In this document: in pieces, positions 1,044 through 63,999 of the stretch
How positions within the stretch are numbered: the first letter of the stretch is position 1
How the letters are laid out: every line of letters starts with the position of its first letter
The notes under the pieces: model-generated
Database searches by the model: none
What the model saw: the letters and a program-made list of their open reading frames with translations, nothing else
What the model was told of the DNA's origin: nothing
Assembly: GCA_016176465.1 (NCBI GenBank)
Contig: JACOXD010000006.1
Coordinates: 7,878 to 71,877, forward strand
DNA: 64,000 nt
Direction: 5' to 3'
Origin: Candidatus Daviesbacteria bacterium
GTDB lineage: Bacteria; Patescibacteriota; Microgenomatia; Daviesbacterales; UBA10151
Made by a program: the position numbers and the translations under genes

Positions 1044-3278
1044 TTACACCTTTTCTTCTTTAGGCTTTGTCCATGAAGCATATTTACAATTTGGGTAATT
1101 TTTACATCCATAAAAAACTCTTCCTTTTTTAGTTCTTCTAACTACTATCTCTCCCCCATCTTGGGGGCATTTAGCATTTATTTTTATATCCAGACTTCCT
1201 GTATATTTACACTCAGGGAAGCCTGAGCAAGCTAAAAACTTACCAAACCTGCCTATTCTAATTACTAAATTTTTGCCACAATTAGGACATTTTTCATCTG
1301 TCATTTCTAGCTCTAATTTAACTTTTCCTGCTTTTTCTTCTGTTTTTTCTAATTTTTCTTCAAAAGGAGTGTAAAAATTTTTTAAAGTTTCTTTCCAGGG
1401 TCTCTCACCCCTTGAGATCTCATCCAATTGATCCTCCATATTAGCCGTAAATTTATAATCAAAAACATCTGGAAAATATTTAATTAAAAAATCCACTACA
1501 GCTATCCCTAAAGGTGTTGGGAATAATTTTCTTTCTTTTCTTTCTATGTAGTAGCGCTCTGTTATTGTGGCTAAAATTGGGGCATAAGTAGAAGGTCTAC
1601 CTATCCCCAGCTCTTCCAGTTTTTTAATTAAAGATGCTTCAGTATACCTGGGAGGAGGTTCAGTAAAGTGTTGAGAAGGCAACACCTGAACCATATTTAA
1701 ATCTTCCCCCTCACTAAGTTTTGGCAAAATCTGCTTTCTTTCATCTTTATCCTGAGCGTCCGCAGTGAGCGAAGCCGAACTGGAGTCGAAGGACTCTTCC
1801 TCAACTTGTTTTACCCCATATACACCCAACCATCCATCAAACTTTAAAACAGAGCCAGTTGCTCTAAGAAGATATTTATTCTTTGGGGGTCCTGCCAGCT
1901 CGGTATCTCGTCGTACCTCCTCATCTTGTAACAACTGCGCTGCGGGGGTGCGCCGAGACCTCTCCTCCCTGTCACCCTCCAAAGAGGTAACTACATCCAC
2001 AGTAGTCTGATCTAAAACAGCCTCATTCATTTGAGAAGCAAGCGTCCTTTTCCAAATTAGATCATAAAGTCTGCCATGATCCCTTGTCAGACCATTCTGA
2101 ATTCCGACATCCGACATCCGATATCCGATCTTGGTTGGCCTAATAGCCTCATGAGCCTCCTGGGCATTTTTTGATTTGGATTTATAAAATTTAGGCTGAT
2201 GGGGTAAATAAGCTTTGCTAAAATTTGAGGAGATATAAGCTCTAATAGCTGATAGCGCTGATTGAGCTAAATTAAAAGAATCAGTTCTCATATAAGTGAT
2301 TAACCCTTGCTCATAAAGGTTTTGCGATAACATCATAGTTTTTTTTGCTGTAAAGCCAAGTTTGTTCCCAGCATTTTGAACTAAAGTAGAAGTGATAAAA
2401 GGAGGGGAGGGGTAGCGTTTAACTTGCTTTTGCGTTATTTTAGAGATCTGATAACTAGCTTCTTTTAGATCAGCTACAATTTTATCTGCTTCTTTTTTGT
2501 CTTTTACATCTGCCTTTTTACCATTTACCTCAATCAGTTTGACAAAAAAGTTTTGCTTTTCAGTATTTTCCAATTCTACTTCTATAACCCAGTATTCTTG
2601 TGGTTTAAACTTCTCAATTTCTCTTTCTTTTTCTACTATTAACCTTAAAGCAACAGATTGAACTCTACCTGCAGATAATCCTCTTTTTATTTTTTGCCAA
2701 AGTAGGGGGGAGAGTTTATAACCTACCAGCCTATCTAAAACTCTCCTAGCTTGTTGAGCATCTACCAATTTTATGTCTATATCTCTTGGGTTTTTAAATG
2801 CATCATCTATAGCTTCTTTAGTAATCTCATGAAAAACGACCCTTTTTATTTGGACAGATTTGGACAAATTCTTTTCTGTTCTATCACCTCCTACTGCCAA
2901 ATCGTCCAATCGAACTTCTCTCTGATCTTGTCCACTTTTAACTTTTAACCTCGGGCCCCCGGATGGGAGTTTAACTTCAGGATTACTCAGTAATTCTGCT
3001 GTGTGCCAAGCAATAGCTTCACCTTCCCTATCAGGGTCTGTGGCTAACCATATTTGTTTAGCTCCCTTTGCTATCTTTTTAAGCTCATTTACCCTTTTTC
3101 TTTTATCTCTGGGAATAATATATTTAGGTTCAAAGTTAGCCTCTATATCTATTCCTAATTCAGCCTTAGGTAAATCCCTAATGTGGCCCATTGAGGCTTC
3201 AATTTGGTAACTATTTCCTAGAAACCTCGCTAGAGTGCGTGCCTTGGTAGGGCTCTCTACTATTACAAGATTATTCAT
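1044..3278 (-). CDS. topA: DNA topoisomerase I
   Basis: N-terminal Toprim segment MNNLVIVESPTKARTLARFLG. Conserved QHFTEPPPRYTEASLIKKLEELGIGRPSTY. C-terminal Cys4 zinc ribbons (CPNCGK...CSGFPEC, CPQDGG...CKNYPNC). Confidence 0.9.
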   Translation of the reverse strand: MNNLVIVESPTKARTLARFLGNSYQIEASMGHIRDLPKAELGIDIEANFEPKYIIPRDKRKRVNELKKIAKGAKQIWLATDPDREGEAIAWHTAELLSNPEVKLPSGGPRLKVKSGQDQREVRLDDLAVGGDRTEKNLSKSVQIKRVVFHEITKEAIDDAFKNPRDIDIKLVDAQQARRVLDRLVGYKLSPLLWQKIKRGLSAGRVQSVALRLIVEKEREIEKFKPQEYWVIEVELENTEKQNFFVKLIEVNGKKADVKDKKEADKIVADLKEASYQISKITQKQVKRYPSPPFITSTLVQNAGNKLGFTAKKTMMLSQNLYEQGLITYMRTDSFNLAQSALSAIRAYISSNFSKAYLPHQPKFYKSKSKNAQEAHEAIRPTKIGYRMSDVGIQNGLTRDHGRLYDLIWKRTLASQMNEAVLDQTTVDVVTSLEGDREERSRRTPAAQLLQDEEVRRDTELAGPPKNKYLLRATGSVLKFDGWLGVYGVKQVEEESFDSSSASLTADAQDKDERKQILPKLSEGEDLNMVQVLPSQHFTEPPPRYTEASLIKKLEELGIGRPSTYAPILATITERYYIERKERKLFPTPLGIAVVDFLIKYFPDVFDYKFTANMEDQLDEISRGERPWKETLKNFYTPFEEKLEKTEEKAGKVKLELEMTDEKCPNCGKNLVIRIGRFGKFLACSGFPECKYTGSLDIKINAKCPQDGGEIVVRRTKKGRVFYGCKNYPNCKYASWTKPKEEKV
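1741..1995. repeat. two GC-rich in-frame insertions in topA resembling the palindromic MITE-like element family
   Basis: nt 1741-1810 (atcctgagcg...cgaagcc...ggagtcgaaggac) matches copies at 35.7 and 50.2 kb. The segment 1900-1995 is GC-rich. In the protein these flank the native FRLKARGRILRFDGW-equivalent segment and add about 20 and 33 residues relative to E. coli TopA. Confidence 0.45.
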
Positions 3279-3348
3279 ATTTTTAACTTTCCAGTAAGTT
3301 TACCTTACTTGTCAAGTATTCTAATTATTTGACATCTTATTCTATATT

Positions 3349-3390
3349 CTATTCCACCTGGGAGGTGGATTAGCTAGACACCTAGGGAAT
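3349..3390. repeat. hairpin repeat unit, copy 1 (ccacctgggaggtgg + attagctagacacctaggg)
   Basis: Perfect 5-bp stem hairpin followed by an agctagacac motif. Related to the copy at 3932-3995 in inverted and partly direct orientation. Confidence 0.5.
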
Positions 3391-3411
3391 TTCTGTTAAG
3401 TTTTAGAAGAA

Positions 3412-3642
3412 TTATTTTGGTGGTCTGATGCTATCAAGTTGCTTTTGGTATGCTTCACTTGTCTGATCTCTAAAAAATCGAAAAACAGTAGCTGCTCCTG
3501 CCACTACAACCATGGATAAACTCCCCCAAGTAGGTATTGCCTCCACGGACATAGATCTCGTACTTCCTGGAGAAGTTGCTTCCATAGCAGTTGTTAAAGC
3601 AATTGTTAATAATGGTCCACCAATAATAAAAGTTCTCATCAT
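3412..3642 (-). CDS. small hypothetical protein with 2 predicted TM helices
   Basis: 76-aa ORF in a segment bounded by inverted hairpin repeats. Weak call. Confidence 0.2.
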   Translation of the reverse strand: MMRTFIIGGPLLTIALTTAMEATSPGSTRSMSVEAIPTWGSLSMVVVAGAATVFRFFRDQTSEAYQKQLDSIRPPK

Positions 3643-3931
3643 CCTTTCCTTCGTTCTGGCATCGACTATTTGTGTCTCTAAATTTCGTATTTGTTCCTCT
3701 TACTTAATTTTTTCCCTAAGTTCGTGTATCGCAGGAGAATGGTTAGGCAGTAACCTCCTCCCGCCAAGACCTATAACAACATTCCCGCCTAATCTGAACC
3801 TTCTTGCTGCAAACCTTTCTTGAATTCCTGCTTGATGTCCTTCAAGACTTCCTTCACCCCATCGCATAATAAAGTATTATAAGGGTAAATATTTACCAAA
3901 ATCAATTTTCATAGTAAAAGGAGAGGTGCAA

Positions 3932-3995
3932 AGCTAATCCACCTTTCAGGTGGATTATATAAGGCACCTATCGGGTATGAAATAGCTAGACACAT
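3932..3995. repeat. hairpin repeat unit, copy 2 (agctaatccacctttcaggtggatt ... atagctagacacatgagg)
   Basis: 8-bp perfect stem. Shares agctaatccacctNNcaggtgg and agctagacac with copy 1. Confidence 0.5.
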
Positions 3996-4011
3996 GAGGA
4001 GTGGATTTTAG

Positions 4012-4746: not shown

Positions 4747-4767
4747 TTATTAAAAAATATAGCGCAA

Positions 4768-7278: not shown

Positions 7279-7285
7279 AGATAAT

Positions 7286-7645: not shown

Positions 7646-7679
7646 ATACTTAATTTAATCATTTTTTAGTAACTAGAAT

Positions 7680-8759: not shown

Positions 8760-8829
8760 TTGGATTTTCCAAGATCAATTTAGTATTATTCTTATACCAT
8801 TTCAAGTATGAATAATAAAAAAATTAAGA

Positions 8830-10686: not shown

Positions 10687-10688
10687 TC

Positions 10689-12036: not shown

Positions 12037-13173
12037 TCAGGGATAGATTACTTGTCCAACTGCTACCATAATTTGCTCACCGTTAAAAACAGGTACTTCT
12101 CTTAAAACTACTTTTTTTACTCTTCCTTTTACTTTTACCCCATTAAAAGGTGTCCAGCCACACTTGGTATATAAAAACTCATTTCTAATCTCCCACTGCT
12201 CATCTAAATCTACCTCTATATAAGTATTATTGTCATCCTGAGCACGGGCCCCCAGAGGGGAGAAGGATCCATTTAGATTCTTCGTCTCGCCAAAGGCGGA
12301 CTCAAAATGACGGGAAGAAAGTCCAAAAACTTTCTTAGGATTAGTTGAGGTTAGTTCTATTACCCTTTCTAAGGTCAATCTCTTCTCAGCTACAGCATTT
12401 AAAAGTAACGGTAGGGTGGTTTCTAACCCTGGGACCCCAAAAGGAGGGTTTTCTGATTTTAATTTTTCATCAACAGTGTGAGGTGCATGATCAGATGCAA
12501 CCATATCCAAAACATCTAAATTTTTCCAAATATATTCAACATCTTTTTTAGAAGATAGCGGTGGTTTCATAATTCCAAAAGGTCCTAATCTTTTTAAATC
12601 TTCATTTGTTAAAAATAGATGATGGGCAGAAACTTCAGCAGTAATTGGCATTCCCGCTTCTTTAGCTATCCTAACTTGATCAATTTCTGAAGCTAGCGAT
12701 AAATGACAAACATGGAGTCTTTGTCCATGACGTTTTGCCAGATCAATCGCCGTGGCTAGGGTCGGACCCTCTGCGTGAACCATAATTATTTTACTCTTGG
12801 GCCAGTTAGCAAAAATTAACTCCAAATCATTTTGATCCTCAATAAGTAGGGGACCTGTGGTGTGATTCATATACACCTTTAGCCCCCAAACTTTTTTCTT
12901 TACTTGTTCAAAAAAAGGAACAGAAACTTTAGAGCCACCAAAGTGAAACCCTAAATCACAAAATATCCTCCCAGGAGCTAAATCTATTTTTTCTTCTAAT
13001 GATATATTGTCAACTATGGGGTTTGGGTTATTGGGCATGTCAAAAATAGTAGTATACCCTCCTGCTATGGCAGCTTTGCTGCCTGTAGCAAAGTCTTCTT
13101 TTTGGATATTCCCAGGCTCTCTTAAGTGAACATGGACATCAACTAGACCTGGCAGTTTAACAATTTTAGACAT
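12037..13173 (-). CDS. pyrC: dihydroorotase carrying an in-frame palindromic-element insertion
   Basis: Metal-binding LPGLVDVHVHLREPG. Amidohydrolase fold. C-terminal region contains a ~28-aa GC-rich insert. Confidence 0.8.
   Translation of the reverse strand: MSKIVKLPGLVDVHVHLREPGNIQKEDFATGSKAAIAGGYTTIFDMPNNPNPIVDNISLEEKIDLAPGRIFCDLGFHFGGSKVSVPFFEQVKKKVWGLKVYMNHTTGPLLIEDQNDLELIFANWPKSKIIMVHAEGPTLATAIDLAKRHGQRLHVCHLSLASEIDQVRIAKEAGMPITAEVSAHHLFLTNEDLKRLGPFGIMKPPLSSKKDVEYIWKNLDVLDMVASDHAPHTVDEKLKSENPPFGVPGLETTLPLLLNAVAEKRLTLERVIELTSTNPKKVFGLSSRHFESAFGETKNLNGSFSPLGARAQDDNNTYIEVDLDEQWEIRNEFLYTKCGWTPFNGVKVKGRVKKVVLREVPVFNGEQIMVAVGQVIYP
12231..12312. repeat. MITE-like palindromic element inserted in-frame within pyrC
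   Basis: tgtcatcctgagcacgggcccccagaggggagaaggatcc...agattcttcgtctcgcc...ctcaaaatgacgg has the family termini and GGGCCCC core. The ORF reads through it. Confidence 0.75.
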
Positions 13174-20945: not shown

Positions 20946-21049
20946 TGTCATTCTGAAGCGCGGGCCCCTTTAGGGAGGAAGGATCTAAAAGAGCTAGATT
21001 CTTCTGGTCCACTGGACCATCAGAATGACAACTTTGCTCAGAATGACAA
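20946..21049. repeat. MITE-like palindromic element at the def/fmt junction
   Basis: tgtcattctgaagcgcgggcccctttagggaggaaggatct...agattcttc...cagaatgaca with an extra terminal half-repeat. The element's ATG is in frame with fmt. Confidence 0.8.
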
Positions 21050-21912
21050 AACTAATTTTTTTTGGAAATACAAAATACTCAATAATTGGAGCAAAGGTTA
21101 TTCATAAAACCTTTCCTTTATCCGCTGTAGTGACAATTCCTGATAAAATTATTGGACGCAAAAAAGAAGTAGTACTCTCCCCTGTTAAAAAATTTGCCAT
21201 TTTGCATAACATCCCAGTTATTGAGACTAATAAATTAACAGATGAGGTGGTAGACAAAATAAAGTATTTAAACCCTGATTTTTTAGTTGTAGAAGATTAT
21301 GGCCTAATTTTACCTTTAAAATTACTAGAGATTCCTAAAATTGCTCCTTTAAACATTCATCACTCCTTACTTCCTAAATATAGAGGCCCATCCCCTGTTC
21401 CCAGCGCAATTTTAAATGGGGAAAAGTTAAGTGGAGTGACTATAATCAGGATGACTAAAGATATAGATGCAGGGGATATTTTAGCACAAAAAGAATATAC
21501 ACTAATACCTAATGAGACTACTGATTCTCTTTTAACTACATTAAACTCAATGGGTGGCGAACTTTTAGTTGATGTGATTAATCAATATTTACAAGGAACC
21601 ACTACACCACAAGCACAGAATAAAGATAAAGCTACTTTAACCAGACTTATAAAAAAAGAGGATGGGTATTTTGATATTGAAAATCCTCCAGACTCTGAGC
21701 AATTAGATAGAATGATTAGAGCTTACTTTCCCTGGCCAAATGTTTGGACAAAATGGAAGGGTAAAGTAGTGAAATTTTATCCCTCTCCCAATCATCCTGA
21801 TTCAGCTTCCGCCGGAGAAGGATCTATTCTTGTACAAATGGAAGGAAAACAAAAAACTCCTCTTAAAGATTTCCTCAATGGCTACCCAAATTTTCCTATA
21901 AAAAAAATTTAA
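21025..21912 (+). CDS. fmt: methionyl-tRNA formyltransferase
   Basis: FFGN...NIHHSLLPKYRGPSP motif. The first ATGs lie inside the element's terminal repeat, so the real start is likely near 21046. Confidence 0.85.
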   Translation: MTTLLRMTKLIFFGNTKYSIIGAKVIHKTFPLSAVVTIPDKIIGRKKEVVLSPVKKFAILHNIPVIETNKLTDEVVDKIKYLNPDFLVVEDYGLILPLKLLEIPKIAPLNIHHSLLPKYRGPSPVPSAILNGEKLSGVTIIRMTKDIDAGDILAQKEYTLIPNETTDSLLTTLNSMGGELLVDVINQYLQGTTTPQAQNKDKATLTRLIKKEDGYFDIENPPDSEQLDRMIRAYFPWPNVWTKWKGKVVKFYPSPNHPDSASAGEGSILVQMEGKQKTPLKDFLNGYPNFPIKKI

Positions 21913-35724: not shown

Positions 35725-35917
35725 TAAGCGTCATCCCCTCGGGTCTGAGCTCCCCGAGTCTGAGCCTCGGAGTCGAAGACCTGAAGCGCATTAGTAATTG
35801 TCATCCTGAAGCGCGGGCCCCTTTAGGGAGGAAGGATCTCAGGATCTAGATTCTTCGCCTTCGGCTCAGAATGACAAAAAAATATCAGAATGACACAATA
35901 AGTCAGAACGACACAAT
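35725..35917. repeat. composite of two adjacent palindromic MITE-like elements (two subfamilies)
   Basis: gcgtcatcccctcgggtctgagc...ggagtcgaagacctgaagcgc followed by tgtcatcctgaagcgcgggcccctttagggaggaaggatct...gctcagaatgacaaaaaaatatcagaatgacacaataagtcagaacgacaca. Confidence 0.8.
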
Positions 35918-40462: not shown

Positions 40463-40583
40463 ATAGAATTGACTAATTCCCTCTTAAGTCTTATTCTAAA
40501 GATGGACTAAAGATCTGCCACAAATGCTAATAAAGAAGATTTTGAACTCCTAAGGTCAGGAAACCCTAATATTTCCAAGGATT
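40463..40583. repeat. ~120-bp direct repeat copy A (duplicate of promoter + first ~20 codons of gene 41404)
   Basis: About 85% identical to 41345-41464. The reading frame is disrupted here. Confidence 0.7.
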
Positions 40584-41195: not shown

Positions 41196-41344
41196 AAAAA
41201 GCCCCGCTTAAAGCGAGGCCAGTTGTACAAGTAGTTCCAAATTGCTTGAAACTCGGCGGCTCACCGTCCTTTGTCCCTGCCAACTTGTTGTAGCTGTATG
41301 TTACCACAATTATTATATTAATGTAAAGACATATTTCTTCTTAA

Positions 41345-41464
41345 TAGATTGACTAGTCCCCATTTAAGCTTTATTCTAAAGATAGATATAAATTCTGCCT
41401 TAAATGTTAAGTAAAGAAGATTTTGAACTCCTAAGATCAGGAAATCCTAATTTATCCAAGGATT
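41345..41464. repeat. ~120-bp direct repeat copy B (native promoter/5' end of gene 41404)
   Basis: See copy A. Confidence 0.7.
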
Positions 41465-45102: not shown

Positions 45103-45218
45103 TGTCATCTTGAGCCTCCTCCTTGTCATCCTGATCAGGCGAAGCCTGAGAAGGATCTAGACTCTTCCTCCCTAAAGGGGCCCGCGGCTCAGAATGACAA
45201 AATAAACATCAGAATGAC
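45103..45218. repeat. MITE-like palindromic element (inverted orientation) with tandem terminal repeat
   Basis: tgtcatcttgagcc...tgtcatcctgatcaggcgaagcc...ggatctagactcttcctccctaaaggggcccgcggctcagaatgacaaaataaacatcagaatgac. Confidence 0.8.
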
Positions 45219-45225
45219 TGATAGA

Positions 45226-50226: not shown

Positions 50227-50368
50227 TGTTATCCTTTCGGGTCTGAGCCTCAGGGTCGAAGACCTGATCTTTCCTCTCGTCATCCTGAGGGCAAAACCCG
50301 AAGGATCTAGTCTAGAGATTCTTCACTTAGTACGCTCAGAATGACAATGAGTATACTTAGAACGACAC
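50227..50368. repeat. MITE-like palindromic element (composite subfamilies) between GT2 genes
   Basis: gttatcctttcgggtctgagcctcagggtcgaagacctg...cgtcatcctgagggcaaaacccgaaggatctagtctagagattcttc...gctcagaatgacaatgagtatacttagaacgacaca. Confidence 0.8.
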
Positions 50369-53976: not shown

Positions 53977-54003
53977 TGAAGCCAAGAGGCGCGATAGCGA
54001 CTC

Positions 54004-54057: not shown

Positions 54058-54059
54058 AT

Positions 54060-54728: not shown

Positions 54729-54839
54729 AAAATTTTTAATTATCAATTCTTAATTTTCATTGAATTTTCAATGTTTCAAAATTGAGTCATTGTAATATTG
54801 ATTAAAAATTGTAAAATTAGAAACTGAAAATTTAAACAT

Positions 54840-55265: not shown

Positions 55266-55266
55266 A

Positions 55267-56187
55267 ATGGGAAGGCCAAAAATAAAAATTATAGATGACA
55301 GCAAGCCGGCAGAAGAATCCGCCTCCGCTAAAGCTACTGCGGACAAAGGAAGTAAAAAGGTAGCTCCTAAAGATAAATTAGCTACTTCCTTACTTGAGGA
55401 ATTAAACCAAGAGTTTGGCGAAGTCCAAGTAAAACCCTCCTTTGCTAAAGCTACGGAGGGCAAGGAAGAGAAAAAGCCTTCGACTCAAACCGCTCAGGCC
55501 AAGGAAACTCCTAAACAAGGTAAAGCTAAACCCAGAAGCAAAAAATACCAAGAAGCGTTAAAGCAAGTTGATCCAAACAATAAATATGATTTAAACGAAG
55601 CTGTCACACTAGCTCAAAAGGTATCATACAGTAAATTTCCAGCTACACTAGAGTTACATATTAATACTAATGTTAAAAACTTAAGAGGTTTTCTAACTTT
55701 GCCCTTTGCATCAGGTAAAAAACTAAGAATTTTAGCTTTTGGTCCTCATTCGCTAAAAGCTTCGGAAGGACAAGCCCTTCTATCTGATGGCGTAACCTTG
55801 GGTGATGATCAAATTCTAGAGGAGATTATAAAAGGAAAAGTCCAAGATGTGGATGTAGTGGTTACCACTCCTGAATGGATGCTTAAACTGGCAAAAGCTG
55901 CTAAAGTTTTAGGGCCTAAGGGTTTAATGCCTAATCCTAAAAATGGGACAGTCACGGATAACTTAGCTAAAACTGTAGCAGAGCTTCAGGGGGGCAAAAC
56001 AGAGTATAAAACAGAAGCAAATGGTTCTGTTATCCATTTAGCTGTTGGTAAAGTTTCACAACCTATTGAGGAGATTACAGCCAATATTAAATCTCTTTAT
56101 CAAATTATTGGTAAAACCAAAATTAAAAAAATTACCCTTGCTCCTACCATGGGACCAGGAGTAAAATTGGACCTATCCTCTCTTTAG
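55267..56187 (+). CDS. rplA: ribosomal protein uL1 with ~80-aa Lys/Ala-rich N-terminal extension
   Basis: L1 core (KYDLNEAV...VVVTTPEWMLKLAK...LGPKGLMPNPKNGTVT) preceded by a low-complexity basic extension. Confidence 0.9.
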   Translation: MGRPKIKIIDDSKPAEESASAKATADKGSKKVAPKDKLATSLLEELNQEFGEVQVKPSFAKATEGKEEKKPSTQTAQAKETPKQGKAKPRSKKYQEALKQVDPNNKYDLNEAVTLAQKVSYSKFPATLELHINTNVKNLRGFLTLPFASGKKLRILAFGPHSLKASEGQALLSDGVTLGDDQILEEIIKGKVQDVDVVVTTPEWMLKLAKAAKVLGPKGLMPNPKNGTVTDNLAKTVAELQGGKTEYKTEANGSVIHLAVGKVSQPIEEITANIKSLYQIIGKTKIKKITLAPTMGPGVKLDLSSL

Positions 56188-57171
56188 CATTTTCTTCCAA
56201 ACTAAACCTAGATCAAATTTTAGAAAATATATTGCGCCAATACCTAATATTAATAGGGCAAGGGTAGTTAGAATATGACCCAAAACTGTACTTGCTGCAA
56301 CTATGTTTGAATTTAATCCTAAAATACCAGAAAAAATTGCTAGTGCGGAAGCTTCTGCAGAGCCTATATAGCCTGGGGCTGATGGAATTAAAAAAGTTAG
56401 TGCTGAGAGTAAATTTCCAAGGTAAGCTTGTATAAGAGTAATATTTAACCCAAAAGCTAAAAATAAAAAAAGCCAAATTAAACCGTCAAGTAAAAAAGCA
56501 AAAGCAGTTAATCCTAGTAGTGATAAAATTTGCCAAGGATTTTTTCTTAATACTGCAAACCCATCAAGAATATTAAAGCTAAAACTTAAGAATTTATTTT
56601 TGAGGATTTTTAAAAAAAATAAGCTGCTTAAGAGCCTTAATAACTTTTTAAAAAAATTAACCTGGGTGATTACCAAAATACTTACCAGAGTAAATATTCC
56701 AAGTATTATAACCAATATTTGGGTAAAATTAGAAGGAAGCTTACTTGATGTAAAGTTTATTAAAATTCCTATGGCAGCCAATGCAAACCAAAAATCAAAA
56801 AATCTATCAATTAATATCCAAATTATAGTTTTTCCTAAAGGAAGAGAATATTGCGTGTTTAAATAAACACTTTTACTAATCTCCCCTGCTCTTATGGGAA
56901 TAAAAAAAGAAAGAAGTTGGCTTAAAAAATTTAAAAAAATTAAATTTTTCCAGGGAATTTTAAATTCATCCAGAATTACTTTTAGCCTAAGAGCCCTGAC
57001 TACAGATGAGGAGGCATATAAAATAAAAAAGACTAAAGTATATTTTAAATCTACCTTTTTTAGAGTATCCAAAAGTTTACTTCCATCGATAAACTGTAGC
57101 CAAATAAAAATTAGTACTACTCCAATTAAGGTATTGATTAGGATTTGTAAAAGAGTTTTTGTAGAAAACAT
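56173..57171 (-). CDS. polytopic membrane protein resembling lysylphosphatidylglycerol-synthase-TM/flippase-like family
   Basis: 332 aa with about 8 TM helices. PSAPGYIGSAEASALAIF motif typical of that family (weak). Confidence 0.45.
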   Translation of the reverse strand: MFSTKTLLQILINTLIGVVLIFIWLQFIDGSKLLDTLKKVDLKYTLVFFILYASSSVVRALRLKVILDEFKIPWKNLIFLNFLSQLLSFFIPIRAGEISKSVYLNTQYSLPLGKTIIWILIDRFFDFWFALAAIGILINFTSSKLPSNFTQILVIILGIFTLVSILVITQVNFFKKLLRLLSSLFFLKILKNKFLSFSFNILDGFAVLRKNPWQILSLLGLTAFAFLLDGLIWLFLFLAFGLNITLIQAYLGNLLSALTFLIPSAPGYIGSAEASALAIFSGILGLNSNIVAASTVLGHILTTLALLILGIGAIYFLKFDLGLVWKKMLKRG

Positions 57172-57184
57172 AGAGAAAAATTAG

Positions 57185-57252
57185 TGTCATTCTGAGCGAA
57201 GCGAAGAATCTAATTAGATCCTTCAATCGTTTCACTCCTTCAGGATGACAAT
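57185..57252. repeat. MITE-like palindromic element (minimal form)
   Basis: gtgtcattctgagcgaagcgaagaatctaattagatccttcaatcgtttcactccttcaggatgacaa. Confidence 0.85.
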
Positions 57253-57293
57253 ATAGATTTTTAATTTAGATGTATTCATAGTATATTAAAGTT

Positions 57294-58172
57294 ATGCTGC
57301 ATGTAAATCTATCCTGGGAATTTCTACAAAATGGGTTTTTTCAAAATAGAAAGGCTTTAATAGGGATTTTTGTTGGACTTATCATCGCCATACCTACCCT
57401 AACCTTTCTTCTTAAAACAAGAGTAGGTTTTCAGTCTCAAGCTTCAACAGATCAACCATATAATCAAACAGTAACTGATAAAACTAAAGATAAAAAAGGT
57501 TTATCGCTTGAGGATTTAACCAAAGACACTAAAGGGGCAACAGATTCAGCTGAAATTACCCCTAAAGTAGGCTTTGGACCAACTCTAAATTTTAAAATTC
57601 AGCTTCAAGGCAGGCCAAAATCTGATCAATCCACCTCCCTTTTTATTGGTTTGGCAGAGGGGGATATCAAGGTAAACCCACCTTATCTTTTAACCTTTAC
57701 CATAGATATAGATAAAACAGGGATTTTTGAAGGGTTATCCTTAGCAGGATTAACAGTTGGAAGTAAATATAGTGCTTACTTAAAAGGAACTGCACAAATT
57801 GCATCCTCATCCACATTTACCATGGGAGGTGCCACTAATATATTAAATTCTAATAATCCCATTTTATTAACCACTGGGGATTTAAATGAAGATAATACCA
57901 TAGATAGTTTGGATTACAACATTGCCAAAGCAGCTATGGGCAAAACCTCTAAATCCCCAAACTGGAACGGAGTTATAGACTTTAACCTGGATAGAGTTAT
58001 TAATAATCTAGATCTATCTATCATTGTTAAAAATATGAGTAAAACAGGCGCGGGTGATTTATATATTTCTAAAGTTTCCAGCCAATCTGGTATCTTAACT
58101 CCAAGTACAGGTTCAACTCCTAATGAGCTACCTACTCCTAGGGGTGGCTATTGGCTCTGGGTTCCAGAGTAA
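57294..58172 (+). CDS. secreted protein with C-terminal dockerin-like Ca-binding repeat pair
   Basis: N-terminal TM/signal. TGDLNEDNTIDSLDYNIAKAAMGK and GVIDFNLDRVINNLDLSIIVKNM resemble the duplicated dockerin type-I segment. Confidence 0.5.
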   Translation: MLHVNLSWEFLQNGFFQNRKALIGIFVGLIIAIPTLTFLLKTRVGFQSQASTDQPYNQTVTDKTKDKKGLSLEDLTKDTKGATDSAEITPKVGFGPTLNFKIQLQGRPKSDQSTSLFIGLAEGDIKVNPPYLLTFTIDIDKTGIFEGLSLAGLTVGSKYSAYLKGTAQIASSSTFTMGGATNILNSNNPILLTTGDLNEDNTIDSLDYNIAKAAMGKTSKSPNWNGVIDFNLDRVINNLDLSIIVKNMSKTGAGDLYISKVSSQSGILTPSTGSTPNELPTPRGGYWLWVPE

Positions 58173-58242
58173 AATTAGCTTTTCCCCATAAAACCTATGA
58201 GCTTGATTTTAAACTATATTAGTAGTATCATTAGCCTCAAAT

Positions 58243-58920
58243 ATGAGTAATATCACCAGACCAGAAGGAGCCAAACACGCTTTCTTAGCATGCCTAGAAC
58301 AATATAATATTGGCGATGAAGAGGTCGTGAGCGCATACTTGGATAAAGCTCGAGACGCTTTAAACACTGAGCTTGATGGACCGGGAGTAAACAGTTTTGC
58401 AGCTTACCAAGCCAGGAGATCCCCTAGTTATTTAATAGACACAGTTTCTTTTGTATCAAGGCTGCCTGATGAATTTCAAGATTTATTTAAGTCATTGTGG
58501 GGAGAAGATCAAGGTAAATCCATGCCTGAGTGGGTCAGATTTAACATAGAAAGAACGGGAACCCCTAATATTCGAGTTATTACCATAAATGGGCAGCCAA
58601 CTCCTGAGCCTCCCCCACAAATCCACAAAGTTAGATTTGAGTTTCTTTCAAACAACGCCATTAATTACCTAAACAAGACCGGAGTAGTATTGCCATCTCA
58701 GGAAATTCTAGCTTCTTTGGAATTAACTATGGAAGGCAATAGAGCTAAGTATCTGTGCCAATACCCAAAACCAAATCCAGTTATGGAAATTTCCCTATCT
58801 GAGCTGCAAAAACCCGATAGAGGAGCTACTATTGCTTTAATGCTGGCTAGAAGTGTGGGTGAGGAGATTGCTTTAATTAAATCCAGGCAGGGCCTTCCTG
58901 AGGGACGCAAAACAGCCTAG
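58243..58920 (+). CDS. hypothetical protein
   Basis: 225-aa ORF. Confidence 0.45.
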   Translation: MSNITRPEGAKHAFLACLEQYNIGDEEVVSAYLDKARDALNTELDGPGVNSFAAYQARRSPSYLIDTVSFVSRLPDEFQDLFKSLWGEDQGKSMPEWVRFNIERTGTPNIRVITINGQPTPEPPPQIHKVRFEFLSNNAINYLNKTGVVLPSQEILASLELTMEGNRAKYLCQYPKPNPVMEISLSELQKPDRGATIALMLARSVGEEIALIKSRQGLPEGRKTA

Positions 58921-60311
58921 AGTTCTATCCAGGATAAATAATTTTTTCCAAGTTCAGGACCTGTGGTGGCAAAAATTACAGGGGCAATATTTTTTCCTAA
59001 GTAATCTAGATACACTTTAGCTTCCTTTGGCAAATCTTTAGGAGATTTTATTTTTTTAATCTCTTCCCCATCCCAACCTTTAAACTCAACTCCCCTAGCT
59101 TCTAACTTATCTAAATGATCTTGATAAGGTAAGTAAAAACTTTTTTCTCCTGTTTTCCTATTTCTATACTCAGTTATAACTTTTATTTTTTCTCCTTTGC
59201 TGGCATCTAAATGGGTTGCAATTAAATATTGATAACCCGCTGCTTTTTTAAGATATTGCGCGATAGGCACAGATACAGGGTATATATCGCGCAATCTGCC
59301 AGTTGAACGACCTTTCTCATCAAACTTTTCTTGGATCCATTTTTCAAGCTTTGGATCAGCAATGGTTGGCAAGATTCTTTGCCCTACAGAAGACATATAA
59401 GTTGTTTTCATTACTGCAGCTCTAATAGCAATATCAGCAGGCTCAACTATAGAGTAAGTTGAATCTCCAATAAAGCGAGACATTGGCCTGGATGAGGTTA
59501 CATCAGGATAGACTCCATGGTATGGATCTAAACCTGCCCCTTGAGCTCCTTCAAAAGTAAAAGCTACTTTAGTATTTTCCCAAGCATTTTTTAAAACTTC
59601 ATAAAAATTCCAACCAATATACTCTCTTAAAGCTACGATACCTACTTTTAAACTATTAATAAAGTCCTTTTCTGAACCTACTCTTAACTTTCCATCAATA
59701 CCTAATCTTTTTACCTCTATATCTGCTAAATTAAACTTTTTTCCAAAACCCAAGGTCATGTTTCTATAAAACTTATAATGATCCCTTAAGAGCCCTTGCC
59801 AATCATTTAGATATAGATCCCCAAAAGTTACTGGGAAACGTAAATAAAAACTGGCATAAGCTGTAGCTAACCCTCTTCCTGTTGAACCCTTTCCTCCTGA
59901 AGTTGCACTGTTATACACAGTTTCTAAGGCTCGATGAGTATCTAGACAAAGAGGAGTTTTAGGATCTATTAATAATTTTCCCGGCAATTTACCTTTAAAG
60001 ATTTTTTTTACTTGACTTAATTCTGTAACTAAGTCTTGAGGGTGAATTACCATTCCTCTTCCCATTAGAGCTGTTGCTCTTTCTTGGATAACTGTCATGG
60101 GAAGTTGATGAGTTACTATCTGTTTACCATTAACATAAACCTCATGCCCTGCATTTGCTCCTCCATTATATCTTAAGGAATATAAAGATCTCTTTGTAGA
60201 TAGCAACCTATTAAATTCTGCAACTACTCTACCCTTACCTGAATCCCCAAAAAATACATCCTCAACTGATACTGAGTTAACTCTGACTCCAGGCTTTAGT
60301 ATAAATTTCAT
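58917..60311 (-). CDS. purA: divergent adenylosuccinate synthetase-like protein
   Basis: FFGDSGKGRVV P-loop, RYNGGANAGHEV and GGKGSTGRGLATAYAS correspond to AdSS motifs GDEGKGK / GGHNAGHT / GTTGRGIGPAY. Confidence 0.6.
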   Translation of the reverse strand: MKFILKPGVRVNSVSVEDVFFGDSGKGRVVAEFNRLLSTKRSLYSLRYNGGANAGHEVYVNGKQIVTHQLPMTVIQERATALMGRGMVIHPQDLVTELSQVKKIFKGKLPGKLLIDPKTPLCLDTHRALETVYNSATSGGKGSTGRGLATAYASFYLRFPVTFGDLYLNDWQGLLRDHYKFYRNMTLGFGKKFNLADIEVKRLGIDGKLRVGSEKDFINSLKVGIVALREYIGWNFYEVLKNAWENTKVAFTFEGAQGAGLDPYHGVYPDVTSSRPMSRFIGDSTYSIVEPADIAIRAAVMKTTYMSSVGQRILPTIADPKLEKWIQEKFDEKGRSTGRLRDIYPVSVPIAQYLKKAAGYQYLIATHLDASKGEKIKVITEYRNRKTGEKSFYLPYQDHLDKLEARGVEFKGWDGEEIKKIKSPKDLPKEAKVYLDYLGKNIAPVIFATTGPELGKNYLSWIEL

Positions 60312-60391
60312 GAATCAAGGTTAGTCTAGCTAATAAATAAGTATTTGACAATAGAGTTAATCAAAGTTAAAATATTCAAAGCTTAAGATAG

Positions 60392-60433
60392 TGAGTTCTT
60401 AGATCCTTCGCTAAAACGCTCAGGATGACACGA
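60392..60433. repeat. half MITE-like element
   Basis: gagttcttagatccttcgctaaaacgctcaggatgacac matches the right arm of the family. Confidence 0.6.
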
Positions 60434-60592
60434 GGATAAATCTCACCGAGGCGGATTTAAGCTAGCGTTTAGTTAATAGCGTCTAGCGTTAAGTTACGCG
60501 CCTTGAGCGCGTTTTTTTATGGAAATCATGAAGAAAGGAAAGATAGAGGTTTAGAAACTTTACCCTTTACGCTAAACCCTATACCCTAGCAG
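60434..60592 (+). promoter_or_regulatory. candidate rplJ (L10) leader with terminator-like hairpin
   Basis: acgcgccttgagcgcgt + T7 at 60494-60517 sits about 75 nt upstream of the rplJ ATG. This resembles the autoregulatory L10 leader arrangement. Confidence 0.3.
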
Positions 60593-61138
60593 ATGCCTAA
60601 AACAAGACAACAAAAGAAAGATTTAGTAACTAAATTAGCTGAGAAGTTAGCTAGAGCTTCCAGCGTAGTTTTTGCAGACTATCGAGGCCTTACTATGGCA
60701 AAGCTACAAGAGCTTAGGAAAGCTTTAAGGGAGCAAGAAGCAGAGTTTAGCATAACCAAAAACAACTTGCTCAAACTGGCAATAAAAGACTCATCACTCA
60801 TTACTAATTACCCATCACTGTTTGAGGGTCCAACTGCAACTCTCTTTGCTTATGGTGACCAAATCTTACCATTAAAAACTATGACAAAATTAATTAAAGA
60901 TACTAAAATTGGGGAAATAAAATTAGGTTTAATGGATGGGGAGATTTTAGATAAATATGCAATTGAAAAACTTGCTTCCCTTCCTTCAAAAGATGAACTT
61001 AGAGCTAAAATTGTGGGAAGCTTGGGCGCTCCACTTTATGGAATTGTTGGGGTTTTGCAAGCTAATTTAAGGAATTTAGTTTACGCACTAGATGGAATTA
61101 GAAAACAAAAAGGAGGTGACATACAAATGTCATCTTGA
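60593..61138 (+). CDS. rplJ: ribosomal protein uL10
   Basis: VVFADYRGLTMAKLQELRKALRE...EFSITKN. Stop codon lies inside a MITE terminal repeat. Confidence 0.9.
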   Translation: MPKTRQQKKDLVTKLAEKLARASSVVFADYRGLTMAKLQELRKALREQEAEFSITKNNLLKLAIKDSSLITNYPSLFEGPTATLFAYGDQILPLKTMTKLIKDTKIGEIKLGLMDGEILDKYAIEKLASLPSKDELRAKIVGSLGAPLYGIVGVLQANLRNLVYALDGIRKQKGGDIQMSS

Positions 61139-61201
61139 GCGTAAGCGAAAGATCTCAAGATTTAAGTCTTTAGATTCTTCGTCTTCGCCTCAGAATGACA
61201 A
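61128..61201. repeat. MITE-like palindromic element spanning the rplJ stop / rplL start
   Basis: tgtcatcttgagcgtaagcgaaagatctcaagatttaagtctttagattcttcgtcttcgcctcagaatgacaa. Confidence 0.85.
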
Positions 61202-61725
61202 TTGTTATTATGCAAGATTTACAAAATAAACCAAAAGATGCTCCAGTAGCTGGAGAAAACACAATAGTTGAAGCTGCGCCAGCAGAGCCTGCAAAAGAAG
61301 CAGCTGAAGTTTTAGAGAAAGTAGAGGAACCTAAACCTGTTTCAGCAAGCTTAGAAAAAATAATTGAACAGATTGAAAAATTATCTGTTTTAGAGTTGGC
61401 TGATTTGGTTCATGCTCTTGAAGAAAGATTTGGAGTAAGCGCAGCAGCTCCTGTAGCAGTTGCAGCAGGTGCCCCCTCCACCGGAGGTGCCGGCGAGCCA
61501 CAGGAAGAACAAACTACTTTTAATGTAGTTTTGGCAAATGCTGGAGCTAATAAAATTGGTGTTATTAAAGCAGTTAGAGAGTTAGTTCCAACTTTAGGAT
61601 TAAAAGAGGCTAAAGATTTAGTTGAAAGCGCACCAAAACCAGTTTTGGAAGGCGTTAATAAGCAGACCGCTGAGGGGGCAAAAGCTAGATTAGTTAGTGC
61701 TGGGGCTCAAGTTGAGTTACAGTAA
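61195..61725 (+). CDS. rplL: ribosomal protein bL12 (L7/L12)
   Basis: [30 protein letters not shown]...[34 protein letters not shown]. The first ATG is the element's cagaATGaca, so the in-frame ATG at 61210 may be the real start. Confidence 0.9.
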
Positions 61726-61752
61726 TAGCTTGGTCAGTTAACGGTCAAGCTT

Positions 61753-61772
61753 GCGAAATACTTCGCTTTTTA
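61753..61772 (+). terminator. rho-independent terminator after rplL
   Basis: gcgaa-atac-ttcgc hairpin followed by ttttta. Confidence 0.5.
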
Positions 61773-61811
61773 CAATGATCGTTGTCTTGTAAAGGCTACG
61801 TATTTCTTAAG

Positions 61812-61874
61812 GAGACTGCTAATGAGGCTAAGACGAAACTTACAGCTTCTGGAGCAACAATAGAACTGCAGTAA
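61812..61874 (+). pseudogene. diverged duplicate of the last 20 codons of rplL
   Basis: ETANEAKTKLTASGATIELQ* versus rplL C-terminus [21 protein letters not shown]. Confidence 0.55.
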
Positions 61875-61918
61875 ATTTAGATACAAGAAGCTTGGCATCT
61901 GGTATCTATTTTCGTATC

Positions 61919-61947
61919 TTGACATGTTCTGAAAATATGTGATATAC
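61919..61947 (+). promoter_or_regulatory. sigma70-like promoter (TTGACA -35) upstream of the HTH gene
   Basis: Exact TTGACA. The AT-rich -10 region tgtgatatac lies 15-17 bp downstream. Confidence 0.35.
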
Positions 61948-61958
61948 AAAAGATTAGT

Positions 61959-62195
61959 ATGGCAGATAAAATCTCACTTGAAAATCTCCCAGATTTACTC
62001 ACAGTAAAAGAAGTTGCTCAAGTTCTAAGAGTATCTCCCCTAACAATTAAAAGGTGGGGTAAAAGAGGAAAACTCCCGGCAATTAGAATAAATTCCAGAG
62101 GTGATAGGAGATATAAGAAGGAAGCAGTTCTTTGGTTATTGGGAATCTCCCAAAAATCTTCTGCAGATTCTGGTTCTGGCTCTCCATCATATTAG
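61959..62195 (+). CDS. small HTH DNA-binding protein (excisionase/MerR-like)
   Basis: LTVKEVAQVLRVSPLTIKRWGKRGKLPAIRI fits a helix-turn-helix excisionase/AlpA-type motif. Confidence 0.5.
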   Translation: MADKISLENLPDLLTVKEVAQVLRVSPLTIKRWGKRGKLPAIRINSRGDRRYKKEAVLWLLGISQKSSADSGSGSPSY

Positions 62196-62252
62196 CAATT
62201 AAGTAACTATTTATGCTAGTTGCTATAGATTAGACTTTTACAATAGGAAAAA

Positions 62253-63032
62253 CTATTTTTTCAGAATTAAGAAAATAAATTTCACAAGAGCATCAAATCT
62301 TTTTATCCTCCAAGGTTGAACTATTAATCTAAATAACCATTCAAATCCTATCAGTCTAATAAAAAGTGGTGCTCTTGGAATCTTTCCTGAGATATAATCA
62401 AGGGTGCCTCCAACACCGATAAATACTTTACTATCAATATGTTTTATATTTTCCTTGATCCATTTCTCTTGCTTTCCATGACCAAAAGCTACCAATAAAA
62501 TATCAACTTTTTCTATTTTTATTTTTTCATTATTTAGCATTTCTCCATCACTACTTATTTTTCCACCATGATCTGTATAGACAATTTTCAAATTGGGAAA
62601 TTTAGTTAACAAGCGCTCTTTTGCTTTGGCTGCTACATTTTTTTGCCCTCCCAAAAGGCCTATTCTAAAGCCTTTTTCCTCACAAATAGACATAAATTTC
62701 AGTATTAAATCTGTACCAGTTACTGTAGGAAATTTGCTTTCTATCAATTTAGGAAATATAAAAAAAGGCCAGTAGATCAATTTCACTATAAAGTTGTTAG
62801 TTTCTAAAACTTTTAGTGCCCATCCTAACCTAGAACTATCGGGAATAGATAAATCTGCATCATTTATTATTTTTTTAAATTCTAAATCTTTCTGAGCCTG
62901 TATAATTATTTCTACATTGGTTGTGACTATATAGTGTTTACCCTGGCCACTAATCCAGACTTGAATATGTTTTAAAACATCTTGGTAATTTACTTTACTT
63001 ACTTTTACTCCTAAGATATTAACTTGCTCCAC
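62253..63032 (-). CDS. WecB/TagA/CpsF-family (GT26) glycosyltransferase
   Basis: VNILGVKVSKVNYQDVL...DADLSIPDSSRLGWAL N-terminus and overall length are typical of GT26. Confidence 0.7.
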   Translation of the reverse strand: MEQVNILGVKVSKVNYQDVLKHIQVWISGQGKHYIVTTNVEIIIQAQKDLEFKKIINDADLSIPDSSRLGWALKVLETNNFIVKLIYWPFFIFPKLIESKFPTVTGTDLILKFMSICEEKGFRIGLLGGQKNVAAKAKERLLTKFPNLKIVYTDHGGKISSDGEMLNNEKIKIEKVDILLVAFGHGKQEKWIKENIKHIDSKVFIGVGGTLDYISGKIPRAPLFIRLIGFEWLFRLIVQPWRIKRFDALVKFIFLILKK

Positions 63033-63999
63033 TGTTTACCTCCTTAAATAGCTTAAGTGTCTCTTTTGCAGCTATCTGCCAAGAAAATTTATTTAACTGC
63101 AAATAACCCTTTTTTGTTAGTTTATCCCTAAAATTATTATCCGTTAATTTGATCATACCATCTCTAATTGCATCAATATTATAAGGGTCAACCAAAATGG
63201 CTGCCTCACCTGCAACTTCAGGTAAGGAGGAAATATTTGAAGTTAAAACAGGACAGCCACAAGAGAAAGCCTCCAATATAGGCAAGCCAAATCCTTCAAA
63301 CAGGGAAGGATATACTAAACCTAGTGCTCCGGAATACAAAGCAGGCAAATCCCTATCTTCCACCCTGCCCAGAAATTTTACTTTACCTTCAATTCCCAGC
63401 TTCTTTGGTAACTCGTAAATTTCATCAGATTTCCACCCTTTATCTCCTACTAAAACTAATTTAATACTGTCATTCTGAACCGAAGGTGAAGAATCTATCA
63501 AACTATTCTTTCGCACTTGAGATCCTTCCTCGCTAAAAGGGGCCCGTGCCCTCAGGATGACATCACTAAAAGCCTTAATTAATCTCTCCAGATTTTTCCT
63601 TGGCTGAATTGTTCCTACAAAGAGAAAAAAGTTTTTTGATACTAGGTTATACTGCCTCAAACTGTTTACTAACATCTTACCTTTGACAGCTTTAAATACC
63701 TCTCTATCTACTCCTTCATAAATAACTTTAATTTTTTCCTCCTTAATCCCTACTTTTTCTACTAAATCTTTCTTTGTAGCATTTGATACTGCAATAATTT
63801 TTATGGCAGTTTTGAGTTGAATTTTGGTTATAAATTTTAGATATAAGATTTGTTTTAGCTGATGGTATCCAGGCAGGTATTCTGAACCCAAATCATGAAC
63901 AGTAAGTACAGTTTTAAGTCTTGGATTTCTAACTATGGGCAAAGTATGCGCAGGTATAAAAAGAAGATCTAAGTTATCCTTAAAGGTTTCAATTCCCAA
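63019..63999 (-). CDS. GT4-family glycosyltransferase (N-terminus beyond window) with in-frame palindromic-element insertion
   Basis: C-terminal GT-B motifs FLFVGTIQPRKN...LVLVGDKGW...PSLFEGFGLPILEAFSCGCPVLTS. A 32-codon GC-rich insert sits between the beta-strand and the LVLVGD motif. Confidence 0.75.
   Translation of the reverse strand: MGIETFKDNLDLLFIPAHTLPIVRNPRLKTVLTVHDLGSEYLPGYHQLKQILYLKFITKIQLKTAIKIIAVSNATKKDLVEKVGIKEEKIKVIYEGVDREVFKAVKGKMLVNSLRQYNLVSKNFFLFVGTIQPRKNLERLIKAFSDVILRARAPFSEEGSQVRKNSLIDSSPSVQNDSIKLVLVGDKGWKSDEIYELPKKLGIEGKVKFLGRVEDRDLPALYSGALGLVYPSLFEGFGLPILEAFSCGCPVLTSNISSLPEVAGEAAILVDPYNIDAIRDGMIKLTDNNFRDKLTKKGYLQLNKFSWQIAAKETLKLFKEVNSGAS
63468..63563. repeat. MITE-like palindromic element inserted in-frame in the GT4 gene
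   Basis: tgtcattctgaaccgaaggtgaagaatct...gatccttcctcgctaaaaggggcccgtgccctcaggatgacat. 96 nt = 32 codons, read through as ...SDVILRARAPFSEEGSQVRKNSLIDSSPSVQNDS... Confidence 0.8.

Follow-up and report, generated by a model that had tools for sequence, protein, structure and literature searches.

Genes and repeat copies in the window

We analysed a stretch of 64,000 nt from Candidatus Daviesbacteria (contig JACOXD010000006.1, positions 7,878-71,877), here called the window, in which a family of short palindromic repeats is interspersed with housekeeping genes, namely topA, clpB-like, dprA, PBP2, mreC/mreB, the pyr genes, def-fmt, purA, rplA, rplJ-rplL, and several glycosyltransferases (GT). The product of the pyrC-like gene is 100% identical to an NCBI protein assigned to Candidatus Daviesbacteria, which places the host among the Microgenomates (Candidate Phyla Radiation). 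The repeats are built from a small hairpin unit with a tag at its 5' foot, and the doublets into which most units are joined measure 60-140 bp and are dispersed through the window. All nine copies listed by a first-pass annotation of this DNA are present where it had placed them. Together with the additional copies, they are as follows (plus and minus give the strand of a unit):

1745..1800, minus: degenerate single antisense-arm unit in topA, in frame, peptide EEESFDSSSASLTADAQDKDE; read by eye, tentative
12229-12270, plus, and 12273-12314, minus: inverted doublet in the pyrC-like gene, in frame; 12.7 and 23.1 bits
20946..21049: intergenic doublet between def and fmt, units 20947-20988 (plus) and 20994-21032 (minus), with an extra outer half-unit at 21038-21048 (minus)
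21788..21827, plus: single, slightly degenerate unit in fmt, in frame near the 3' end, peptide NHPDSASAGEGSI
35725..35917: composite of an orphan CGTCATCC tag, a module C hairpin (35739-35784), a doublet (35800-35841, plus; 35846-35878, minus) and outer half-units at 35885-35895 and 35903-35913 (minus)
45103..45219: doublet between convergent genes, 45122-45160 (plus) and 45160-45199 (minus), flanked by orphan half-units at 45103-45113 (plus) and 45209-45219 (minus)
50227..50368: composite between two minus-strand GT2 genes, made of a TGTTATCC tag, a module C hairpin (50238-50267), a doublet (50276-50310, plus; 50314-50348, minus) and an outer half-unit at 50355-50366 (minus)
57183..57252: simplest doublet, between divergent genes, 57183-57213 (plus, GCGAAGC apex) and 57214-57252 (minus); 47.7 and 30.4 bits
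60399..60432, minus: complete single unit upstream of rplJ; 37.6 bits, E 6e-08
61126..61202: doublet between rplJ and rplL, whose left unit has the compensated stem variant ATCTT/AAGAT
63466..63562: doublet in the GT4 gene (63019-63999, minus), in frame, 63466-63498 (plus) and 63518-63562 (minus)

The description of a dispersed, GC-rich, palindromic repeat family is borne out by motif counts, by a covariance model, and by base composition. The terminal word TGTCATYCTGAGC, with at most one mismatch, has 13 matches in the window versus 0.06 expected (0 of 100 shuffles), and TCAGRATGACA has 24 versus 1.65 expected. The inner core GAAGRATCTA is by itself about two-fold enriched (29 versus 14.8 expected), yet it is found together with the termini. 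Repeat finding recovered a 42-nt GC-rich arm at 20946, at 35798 and, inverted, at 45158, with 88-96% identity, and the GC content of the elements is 39-55% as compared to about 35% for the window. The covariance model, which the first-pass annotation had suggested building, was trained on 138 units from other genomes and one window unit, so that nearly all of the training was out of phylum. This model (R1) found 14 units in the window at E<=0.02 and 3 further units with long GC-rich apical inserts at E 0.17-0.39, giving a total of 17. A regular expression for the two half-sites recovered the same 17 units, with about four low-quality matches per shuffle. These units correspond to eight inverted doublets, whose tags point outward, and two single units.

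Some details of the first inventory changed. The copy at 60392-60433, recorded as a half, is a complete single unit, and the unit in fmt (21788-21827), which was absent from that list, matches the regular expression with one mismatch and scores 17.6 bits with R1 (E 0.019). A sub-family with a (G)GTCGAAGACCTGA core does exist, but it comprises just two copies, at 35772 and 50255. Of the remnants suspected in topA, we could read by eye one degenerate antisense unit, whose parts GAAGAGTCCTTCGACTCC..GCTTCGCTCA..GACGCTCAGGATAAAGA resemble right arms such as AGATCCTTC-GACTCGCTTCGCTCGC-TCAGGATGACG of other phyla; this unit is tentative because neither R1 nor the regular expression detects it. As a separate observation, T-type units that follow a T (minus strand: 35877-35850, 50347-50318, 61201-61174, and 63501-63472) read, by consensus match alone, as weak sigma-70-like promoters that point into the doublet (TTGTCA or TTGATA, 16-18 nt, AAGAAT or CAGAAT).

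Architecture of the hairpin unit

The unit is a hairpin of 27-45 nt, composed of a YGTC tag, ATYCT, a tandem G·A, an apex, a second tandem G·A, AGRAT, and a CT tail. The basal stem has 5 bp (ATYCT/AGRAT), GA stands opposite GA as tandem mismatches, and the tag is unpaired. The layout of a doublet is TGTCAT[Y]CTGA - h1 - GAAG[R]ATCT - 0-24 nt spacer - AGAT[Y]CTTC - h2 - TCAG[R]ATGACA.

The fold was evaluated in an alignment of 139 units with a 7-nt apex, where 98.2% of the cells are paired and five of seven pairs have changed on both sides. Covariation scores 0.314 here as compared to 0.165 in shuffles, none of 500 shuffles reaches 0.314, and every slid register collapses. The main stem pair, Y9-R25, is U-A in 69 units, C-G in 64, and G-C in 1, while the apical pair 14-20 is G-C in 90, A-U in 38, and G-U in 7; the other apical pair is C-G in 119 and U-A in 9, and two more stem pairs show rarer compensations. 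The first two stem pairs are almost constant (7-27 is A-U in 135 of 139 units and 8-26 is U-A in 138 of 139).

Conservation extends to positions that do not pair. Although unpaired, the two GA dinucleotides, GTC in the tag, and the CT tail are all conserved, the latter two above 90% (G, T, and C of the tag at 90-100%), and the first base of the tag is T in 278 and C in 29 of 325 units. The apex is mostly RC-GNA-GY, e.g., GCGAAGC, with a GNA loop in 108 of 136 seven-base apexes; the loop is thus usually 3 nt, or 5 nt when the closing C-G is counted. The heptamer d(GCGAAGC) is a classic example of a DNA mini-hairpin with unusual stability. Many units instead have a longer apical insert; these inserts are unrelated in sequence and again fold as hairpins (at least 3 terminal pairs in 48 of 111, versus 5.5 expected).

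Each arm of a doublet is an independent hairpin, because the variable Y and R covary inside an arm while the outer positions of the two arms are independent. In 291 of 307 units, the outer-block Y and the inner-block R of the same arm are Watson-Crick complements. From one arm to the other, the variable outer positions, left and right, combine freely (C/A 36, C/G 31, T/A 26, T/G 26), the stem type is the same in both arms of 56 of 124 doublets, and, in other genomes, the apexes are identical in 20 and different in 104 of 124 doublets. The ends that had been taken for the terminal inverted repeats (TIRs) of an element like a miniature inverted-repeat transposable element (MITE) are therefore the 5' halves of two separate units, uncorrelated with each other. 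Single complete units and direct head-to-tail tandem units both occur besides the inverted doublets. Two other folds were dropped: the long hairpin of a whole doublet was ruled out as the selected structure, since the arms do not covary although single copies fold in silico into an outer stem, an inner stem, and side hairpins; and a hammerhead-like reading of CUGA...GAA has no Rfam support.

Orphan 5' half-units, consisting of the tag and the 5' stem, stand directly outside full units in 52 cases, as compared to 11 orphan 3' halves and 3+3 cases in two control arrangements. They are often iterated with a period of 16-28 nt, and in the window they often flank both sides of a doublet. This outward polarity may be a footprint of the mechanism. 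Module C, present at 35755-35784 and 50238-50267 in copies that are 90% identical, follows the same design with a different basal stem (GGTCT-GA-apex-GA-AGACC).

Distribution and local expansion

We scanned one genome per GTDB species with the right half of the architecture (GAAGRATCT, 0-20 nt, AGATYCTTC, 2-32 nt, TCAGRATGACA), which gave at least 120 loci. The left arm was not part of the pattern, yet 120 complete elements with the same left arm were found there. The loci listed include Nitrospirales, Acidobacteriota, Clostridia and other Bacillota, Bacteroidota, Ignavibacteria, Planctomycetota, Verrucomicrobia, Omnitrophota, Chloroflexota, Armatimonadetes, Cyanobacteria, Myxococcales, Bdellovibrionales, Alpha- and Gammaproteobacteria (including Rickettsiales and Coxiellaceae), and Patescibacteria (Curtissbacteria, Saccharibacteria); these assignments are the labels of metagenome-assembled genomes (MAGs) and isolates. 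The earlier idea of a system belonging to a genome of the Candidate Phyla Radiation (CPR) was therefore too narrow: judged by these labels, the family is not CPR-specific and appears nearly unchanged across many phyla.

Thirty-four IMG/VR contigs also bear the element, some of them beside capsid and portal genes. In three of these contigs (L130, L133, and L160), doublets flank phage major-capsid and portal genes, and the family therefore also lives in phage genomes. There was no match in 50,697 records of cultured phages and one partial match, in Calothrix, among 72,556 plasmids. Tandem arrays of at least five doublets with conserved linkers, reminiscent of bacterial interspersed mosaic elements (BIMEs), occur in the IMG/VR contigs L138 (8545-8970, period about 87 nt) and L150 (8923-9450, period 78-127 nt).

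The distribution is broad but patchy. Among 80 loci related to pyrC (800 kb) there are 23 units, confined to 7 loci, and the density of the window, 17 units in 64 kb, is about ten times higher. The window also has an apical variant of its own. The B-type arm (GGGCCCCTTTAGGGAGG) is 88-96% identical in at least three doublets and more diverged in two others, its GC-rich apex pairs with five different partner units inside the window, and the same apical variant recurs at sites 9-43 kb apart. Neither the B-type arm (module B) nor module C is present in 126 fetched loci, and the B-type arm is also absent from JGI metagenome contigs. Because the GC-rich apex is absent from these loci and contigs and has five partners in the window, these data point to amplification within the lineage of the window and to independent assortment of the units.

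Look-ups with exact proteins returned only contigs of the same strain, which end inside elements; in these short-read (Logan) contigs (L161-L164), the sequence continues for 38 or 111 nt beyond the gene upstream of an element and then stops. Assemblies thus break at the repeats, as expected of a multi-copy repeat.

Insertion sites and in-frame copies

The proposal that the elements are tolerated in frame inside open reading frames (ORFs) holds for the pyrC-like, GT4, and fmt genes, to which topA adds the degenerate copy that no model scored. The doublet in the pyrC-like amidohydrolase gene (12037-13173, minus strand) adds about 24-26 residues (an in-frame insert of 26 aa), and most homologues, at 353-355 aa, are without the inserted segment. 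Among the closest relatives, the site is empty in some (P0005, with AGC GAT GAT GGT) and filled in one by a doublet of the same family; of the other close relatives, one has a unit like that of the CGTC-2 family discussed below, and others have further inserts. An AlphaFold model from a shallow alignment (mean predicted local distance difference test score, pLDDT, 70) renders the insert as coil with pLDDT <50. The GT4 insert has 32 aa, and it is exactly at this point that the alignment to MshA (3c4q) is interrupted, with 45 residues of the query versus 25. Compared with E. coli TopA, the topA product is longer by 41 residues behind the Toprim domain (aa 102-142) and by about 54 residues at aa 430-507, the region into which the degenerate unit falls. 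We also note that the insertions in topA (gene 1044-3278) are GC-rich and that the stretch CAGGGAGGAGAGGTCTC resembles a B-type apex plus inner core.

The elements also abut start and stop codons and use ATG and TGA within their terminal repeats, as had been described. The def stop codon is 1 nt from an element tag, the first fmt ATGs (21025 and 21043) lie inside element tags, the TGA of L10 (rplJ; 61136-61138) lies inside the left tag of the 61126..61202 doublet, and a GT2 stop codon is 1 nt from an outer half-unit. At 61195-61345, the putative start ATG of the L7/L12 ORF lies inside the element tag, and about 50 residues precede the usual N-terminal dimerisation domain, which Pfam puts at residue 53.

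A target motif or a duplication at the insertion sites had been put forward as something to look for, and neither was found in 131 doublets: the flanks share no motif, and direct repeats of 0, 1, 2, 3, and 4 nt adjoin 84, 31, 9, 3, and 4 doublets, as by chance, so that there is no target-site duplication (TSD).

Enzymes such as dihydroorotase-like and GT4 proteins thus gain 24-32 residues from the repeats, and adjoining genes obtain start or stop codons from them. The repeats also break short-read assemblies and seed spurious ORFs. For these reasons, annotation pipelines for CPR genomes should mask or model them.

Origin and spread of the repeats

On balance, we consider it probable that these elements are repeats of the repetitive extragenic palindromic (REP) type tagged with CGTC/TGTC, rather than transposon-derived MITEs, and that they spread as a single-stranded hairpin through a structure-specific enzyme acting in trans. 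The unit would fold once the DNA is single-stranded, e.g., at a replication fork, and the enzyme would recognise the foot of the hairpin together with the tag. By analogy with REP-associated tyrosine transposases (RAYTs) and their REPs and with IS200/IS605, the enzyme might be a transposase of the HUH Y1 type that cuts and re-joins DNA without a target duplication; TSD-free mobilisation by such an HUH-like enzyme in trans appears to be the most likely mode. It is from these parallels that we infer both the single-stranded intermediate and the enzyme. Copies would then persist where they do little harm in a compact genome, either between genes or in frame within surface loops. The lineage of the window shows a local expansion, marked by its own GC-rich apical variant.

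Several results weigh against this explanation. No transposase domain, Y1/HUH included, was found by Pfam among 50 ORFs of the window, about one third of which have no Pfam match. Clustering of 2,708 ORFs from 120 loci gave housekeeping genes only as recurrent neighbours (ABC transporters, response regulators), and on viral contigs, ten ORFs adjacent to elements matched capsid, portal, and ABC-transporter proteins and no transposase. A trans-acting transposase, which the first-pass annotation had suggested looking for, was thus found in none of these three sets, nor did any locus examined hold a transposase-bearing element with the same ends. The literature likewise ties no enzyme to CGTC REPs (PMC3733652, PMC6006769); Quentin et al. 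(2018) associated GT[AG]G REPs with several TnpA-Y1 subclasses and CGTC REPs with none (PMC6006769). In addition, near-identity across phyla is not obviously explained by a lineage-bound domesticated transposase, since REP/RAYT pairs are normally species-specific. The main covarying pair has two common states, and part of its signal could reflect two old alleles that were inherited. For presence and absence among near-identical strains, the closest pyrC homologue is 69% identical and the short-read contigs of the same strain break at the elements. Finally, the data are compatible with folding of the unit as DNA or as RNA.

In another scheme, a single REP family, with about 20 near-identical nt across many phyla and some phage contigs, accompanied by no transposase and still growing in number in a CPR lineage, would be mobilised, or bound and maintained, by a universal host enzyme of DNA replication or repair and not by a transposase of its own. 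We consider this unlikely. If it were true, the copying mechanism would have left its trace in the outward stutter of 5' half-units, and the small Daviesbacteria genome would give a short list of candidates for the activity that mobilises CGTC REPs.

It is also unlikely, in our judgement, that the units are cis elements kept by function for the host, such as RNA stabilisers, attenuators, or processing sites, or binding sites for a protein on DNA. The strong covariation of the hairpin and the conservation of unpaired flanks across phyla fit such a role, as does the position of many copies after stop codons, and the T-type unit resembles a weak sigma-70 promoter (TTGTCA-16/18-AAGAAT). Di Nocera et al. 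also note that many REPs are located downstream of genes, where their transcription is probable (PMC3733652). However, copies stand in frame in four unrelated genes, and others separate divergent promoters or convergent genes; an orthologous site may be filled in one relative and empty in another, related lineages differ about 10-fold in density, and tandem arrays occur. No Rfam family matches: over the window there was no hit to an element at the gathering score, and over 57100-63700, which holds four elements, none at E<=5. The hairpins also lack a T-tract and are missed by a terminator scan. A role as terminators, which the first-pass annotation had raised, was rejected on these grounds; the scan totals (17 and 17) equal those of shuffles (15.9 and 16.3), and inside the elements it gave only two overlapping matches, on the non-coding strand of the module C hairpin (50250-50267).

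Still less likely is that the repeats are mainly passive landing pads or recombination sites for other mobile elements. The repeats would then multiply by local duplication and gene conversion, without transposing themselves. Tandem doublet arrays with conserved linkers, the stacking of orphan 5' half-units outside full units (52 versus 11 and 3+3), and the shuffling of apical variants between arms would all be understandable in this way. Neisseria dRS3 repeats are reportedly used by filamentous prophages with IS110-type recombinases. Insertion into REPs has been described for ISPpu9 (PMC12288879). Nevertheless, dispersal to unlinked sites, including coding loops, requires a mobilisation step, the same apical variant occurs at sites 9-43 kb apart, and no IS110-like gene was seen beside any copy, either in the clustering of the 120 loci or among the viral-contig ORFs. 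A classical MITE, that is, a deletion derivative of a DDE-type insertion sequence (IS) with TIRs TGTCATYCTGAGC...GCTCAGRATGACA that is mobilised in trans as double-stranded DNA, is very unlikely: the outer 11-13 nt of a doublet are indeed inverted repeats starting with 5'-TGT, as in many DDE elements, and the size and dispersal of the copies would suit it, but there is no TSD, the two supposed TIRs vary independently of each other, each in step with the inner core of its own arm, units also occur singly and complete or in head-to-tail order, and neither a parent IS nor a transposase enclosed by these ends was found in the loci examined.

If the elements are REPs of the CGTC/TGTC type, as we favour, they belong to a class that has been without a known mobilising enzyme since its description in 2013. 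CPR genomes are typically about 1 Mb in size. A reduced genome in which the repeats have recently expanded is well suited to a search for the mobilising activity.

Other repeats and features in the window

The window contains further repeats. On the minus strand, positions 41217-41291 match the DUF3800-II RNA motif (Rfam RF02961, 55 bits), just after a DUF3800 gene (40611-41195, plus strand), and this gene is bracketed by direct repeats of about 116 nt (40468-40583 and 41348-41464) that are 76-92% identical. The N-terminus of ribosomal protein L1 is extended by about 117 residues (55267-55620). A hairpin-forming repeat of 49 nt occurs twice within this extension (55311-55359 and 55428-55476; peptides SASAKATAD and PSFAKATEG) and may represent a further family of palindromic inserts. 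A 34-nt inverted repeat (3350-3383 and 3924-3957, 82% complementary), unrelated in sequence to the main hairpin family, brackets a small ORF (3512-3823) without a Pfam match.

Comparison with known repeat systems

Di Nocera, De Gregorio & Rocco (2013) divided REPs into GTAG-tagged and CGTC-tagged superfamilies (PMC3733652). According to these authors, CGTC REPs carry an unpaired 5' tag CGTC, "changed to TGTC ... in many repeats", with CCTC as a further variant, a stem of 8-9 positions that starts with A-T and T-A, a loop of 4-5 nt, and a short, unpaired 3' tail with the consensus CCA. They are mostly inverted dimers, often heterodimers, occur in frame within genes and in five phyla, and "apparently lack a dedicated transposase" (PMC3733652). 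The superfamily includes Neisseria dRS3 (CGTC-1) and the Rickettsia palindromic elements (RPEs) RPE-6 (CGTC-1) and RPE-4 (CGTC-4), and the peptides given for its families are VIPAKAGIQ, RHSELVSGS, VIAGLDPAIH, and VIPVLDTGI (PMC3733652).

The window unit resembles this superfamily in its YGTC tag, the A-T/T-A start of its stem, the presence of a short tail, and its inverted dimers and heterodimers with outward tags, as well as in its in-frame copies within genes, its occurrence in several phyla, and the lack of a flanking transposase in the window and the other loci. The closest family is CGTC-2, since the 5' half of the unit, CGTCATTCTGA, equals that implied by the CGTC-2 peptide RHSELVSGS; the CGTC-2-like unit found at the same pyrC site in a relative is AGTCATTCCGAA-TTCAT-TTCGGAATCT. 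In contrast to CGTC-2, the 3' half here is GAAGRAT rather than TTCAGRAT, and the tandem G·A interrupts the stem, whose cap is a GNA mini-hairpin of 2 bp or a longer hairpin. A conserved 3' tail exists, but it is CT(N) here and CCA in the superfamily, and G·A mismatches are conserved at two of the nine stem positions, a feature absent from the described CGTC families. The peptides of the unit (CHSERSEES, VILSEAKNL, and SLRMT) are absent from the intragenic tables of Di Nocera et al., whose five host phyla are without Patescibacteria (PMC3733652); the unit is thus set apart from CGTC-1 to CGTC-4 indirectly, through the tabulated peptides. Within the library searched, we found no paper on REP-type repeats in Patescibacteria or on palindromic elements of the CPR, and the peptides and DNA words of the unit (CHSERSEES, RFFASLRMT, GAGCGAAGCGAAGAATC) had no match.

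The analogy with Rickettsia RPEs, drawn in the first-pass annotation, is apt in kind, because RPE-4 and RPE-6 belong to the same CGTC superfamily whose anatomy the window unit matches (PMC3733652). In both cases palindromic repeats stand in frame in protein-coding genes of a small genome, although the stem and loop sequences differ, as judged from the RPE peptides (VIPAKAGIQ and VIPVLDTGI). Neisseria dRS3 is of the same superfamily and often forms large clusters (PMC3733652), while its stem sequence is different.

With the GTAG REPs of E. coli and Pseudomonas, i.e., the REPIN-RAYT systems, the unit shares a 5' tetranucleotide at the foot of the hairpin, inverted doublets, BIME-like clusters, and non-autonomy. 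The tag, however, is YGTC rather than GT[AG]G, no RAYT gene is flanked by units in the window or the loci, and the unit is nearly invariant across phyla, whereas REP/RAYT sequences are lineage-specific. Bacterial MITEs (Correia, MITEAba12) are likewise small, dispersed, and non-autonomous with an inverted-repeat outline, but they are bounded by true TIRs, are flanked by a TSD of fixed length, and have a parent IS; for the window unit, none of these traits was found.

We therefore regard the repeats as a new member of the CGTC/TGTC-tagged REP class, in a new host group and with a local expansion, and the unit possibly represents a fifth CGTC family. What the window adds to the known systems is a CGTC-class family at high density in a genome of Patescibacteria, in the form of a precisely defined G·A/GNA hairpin.

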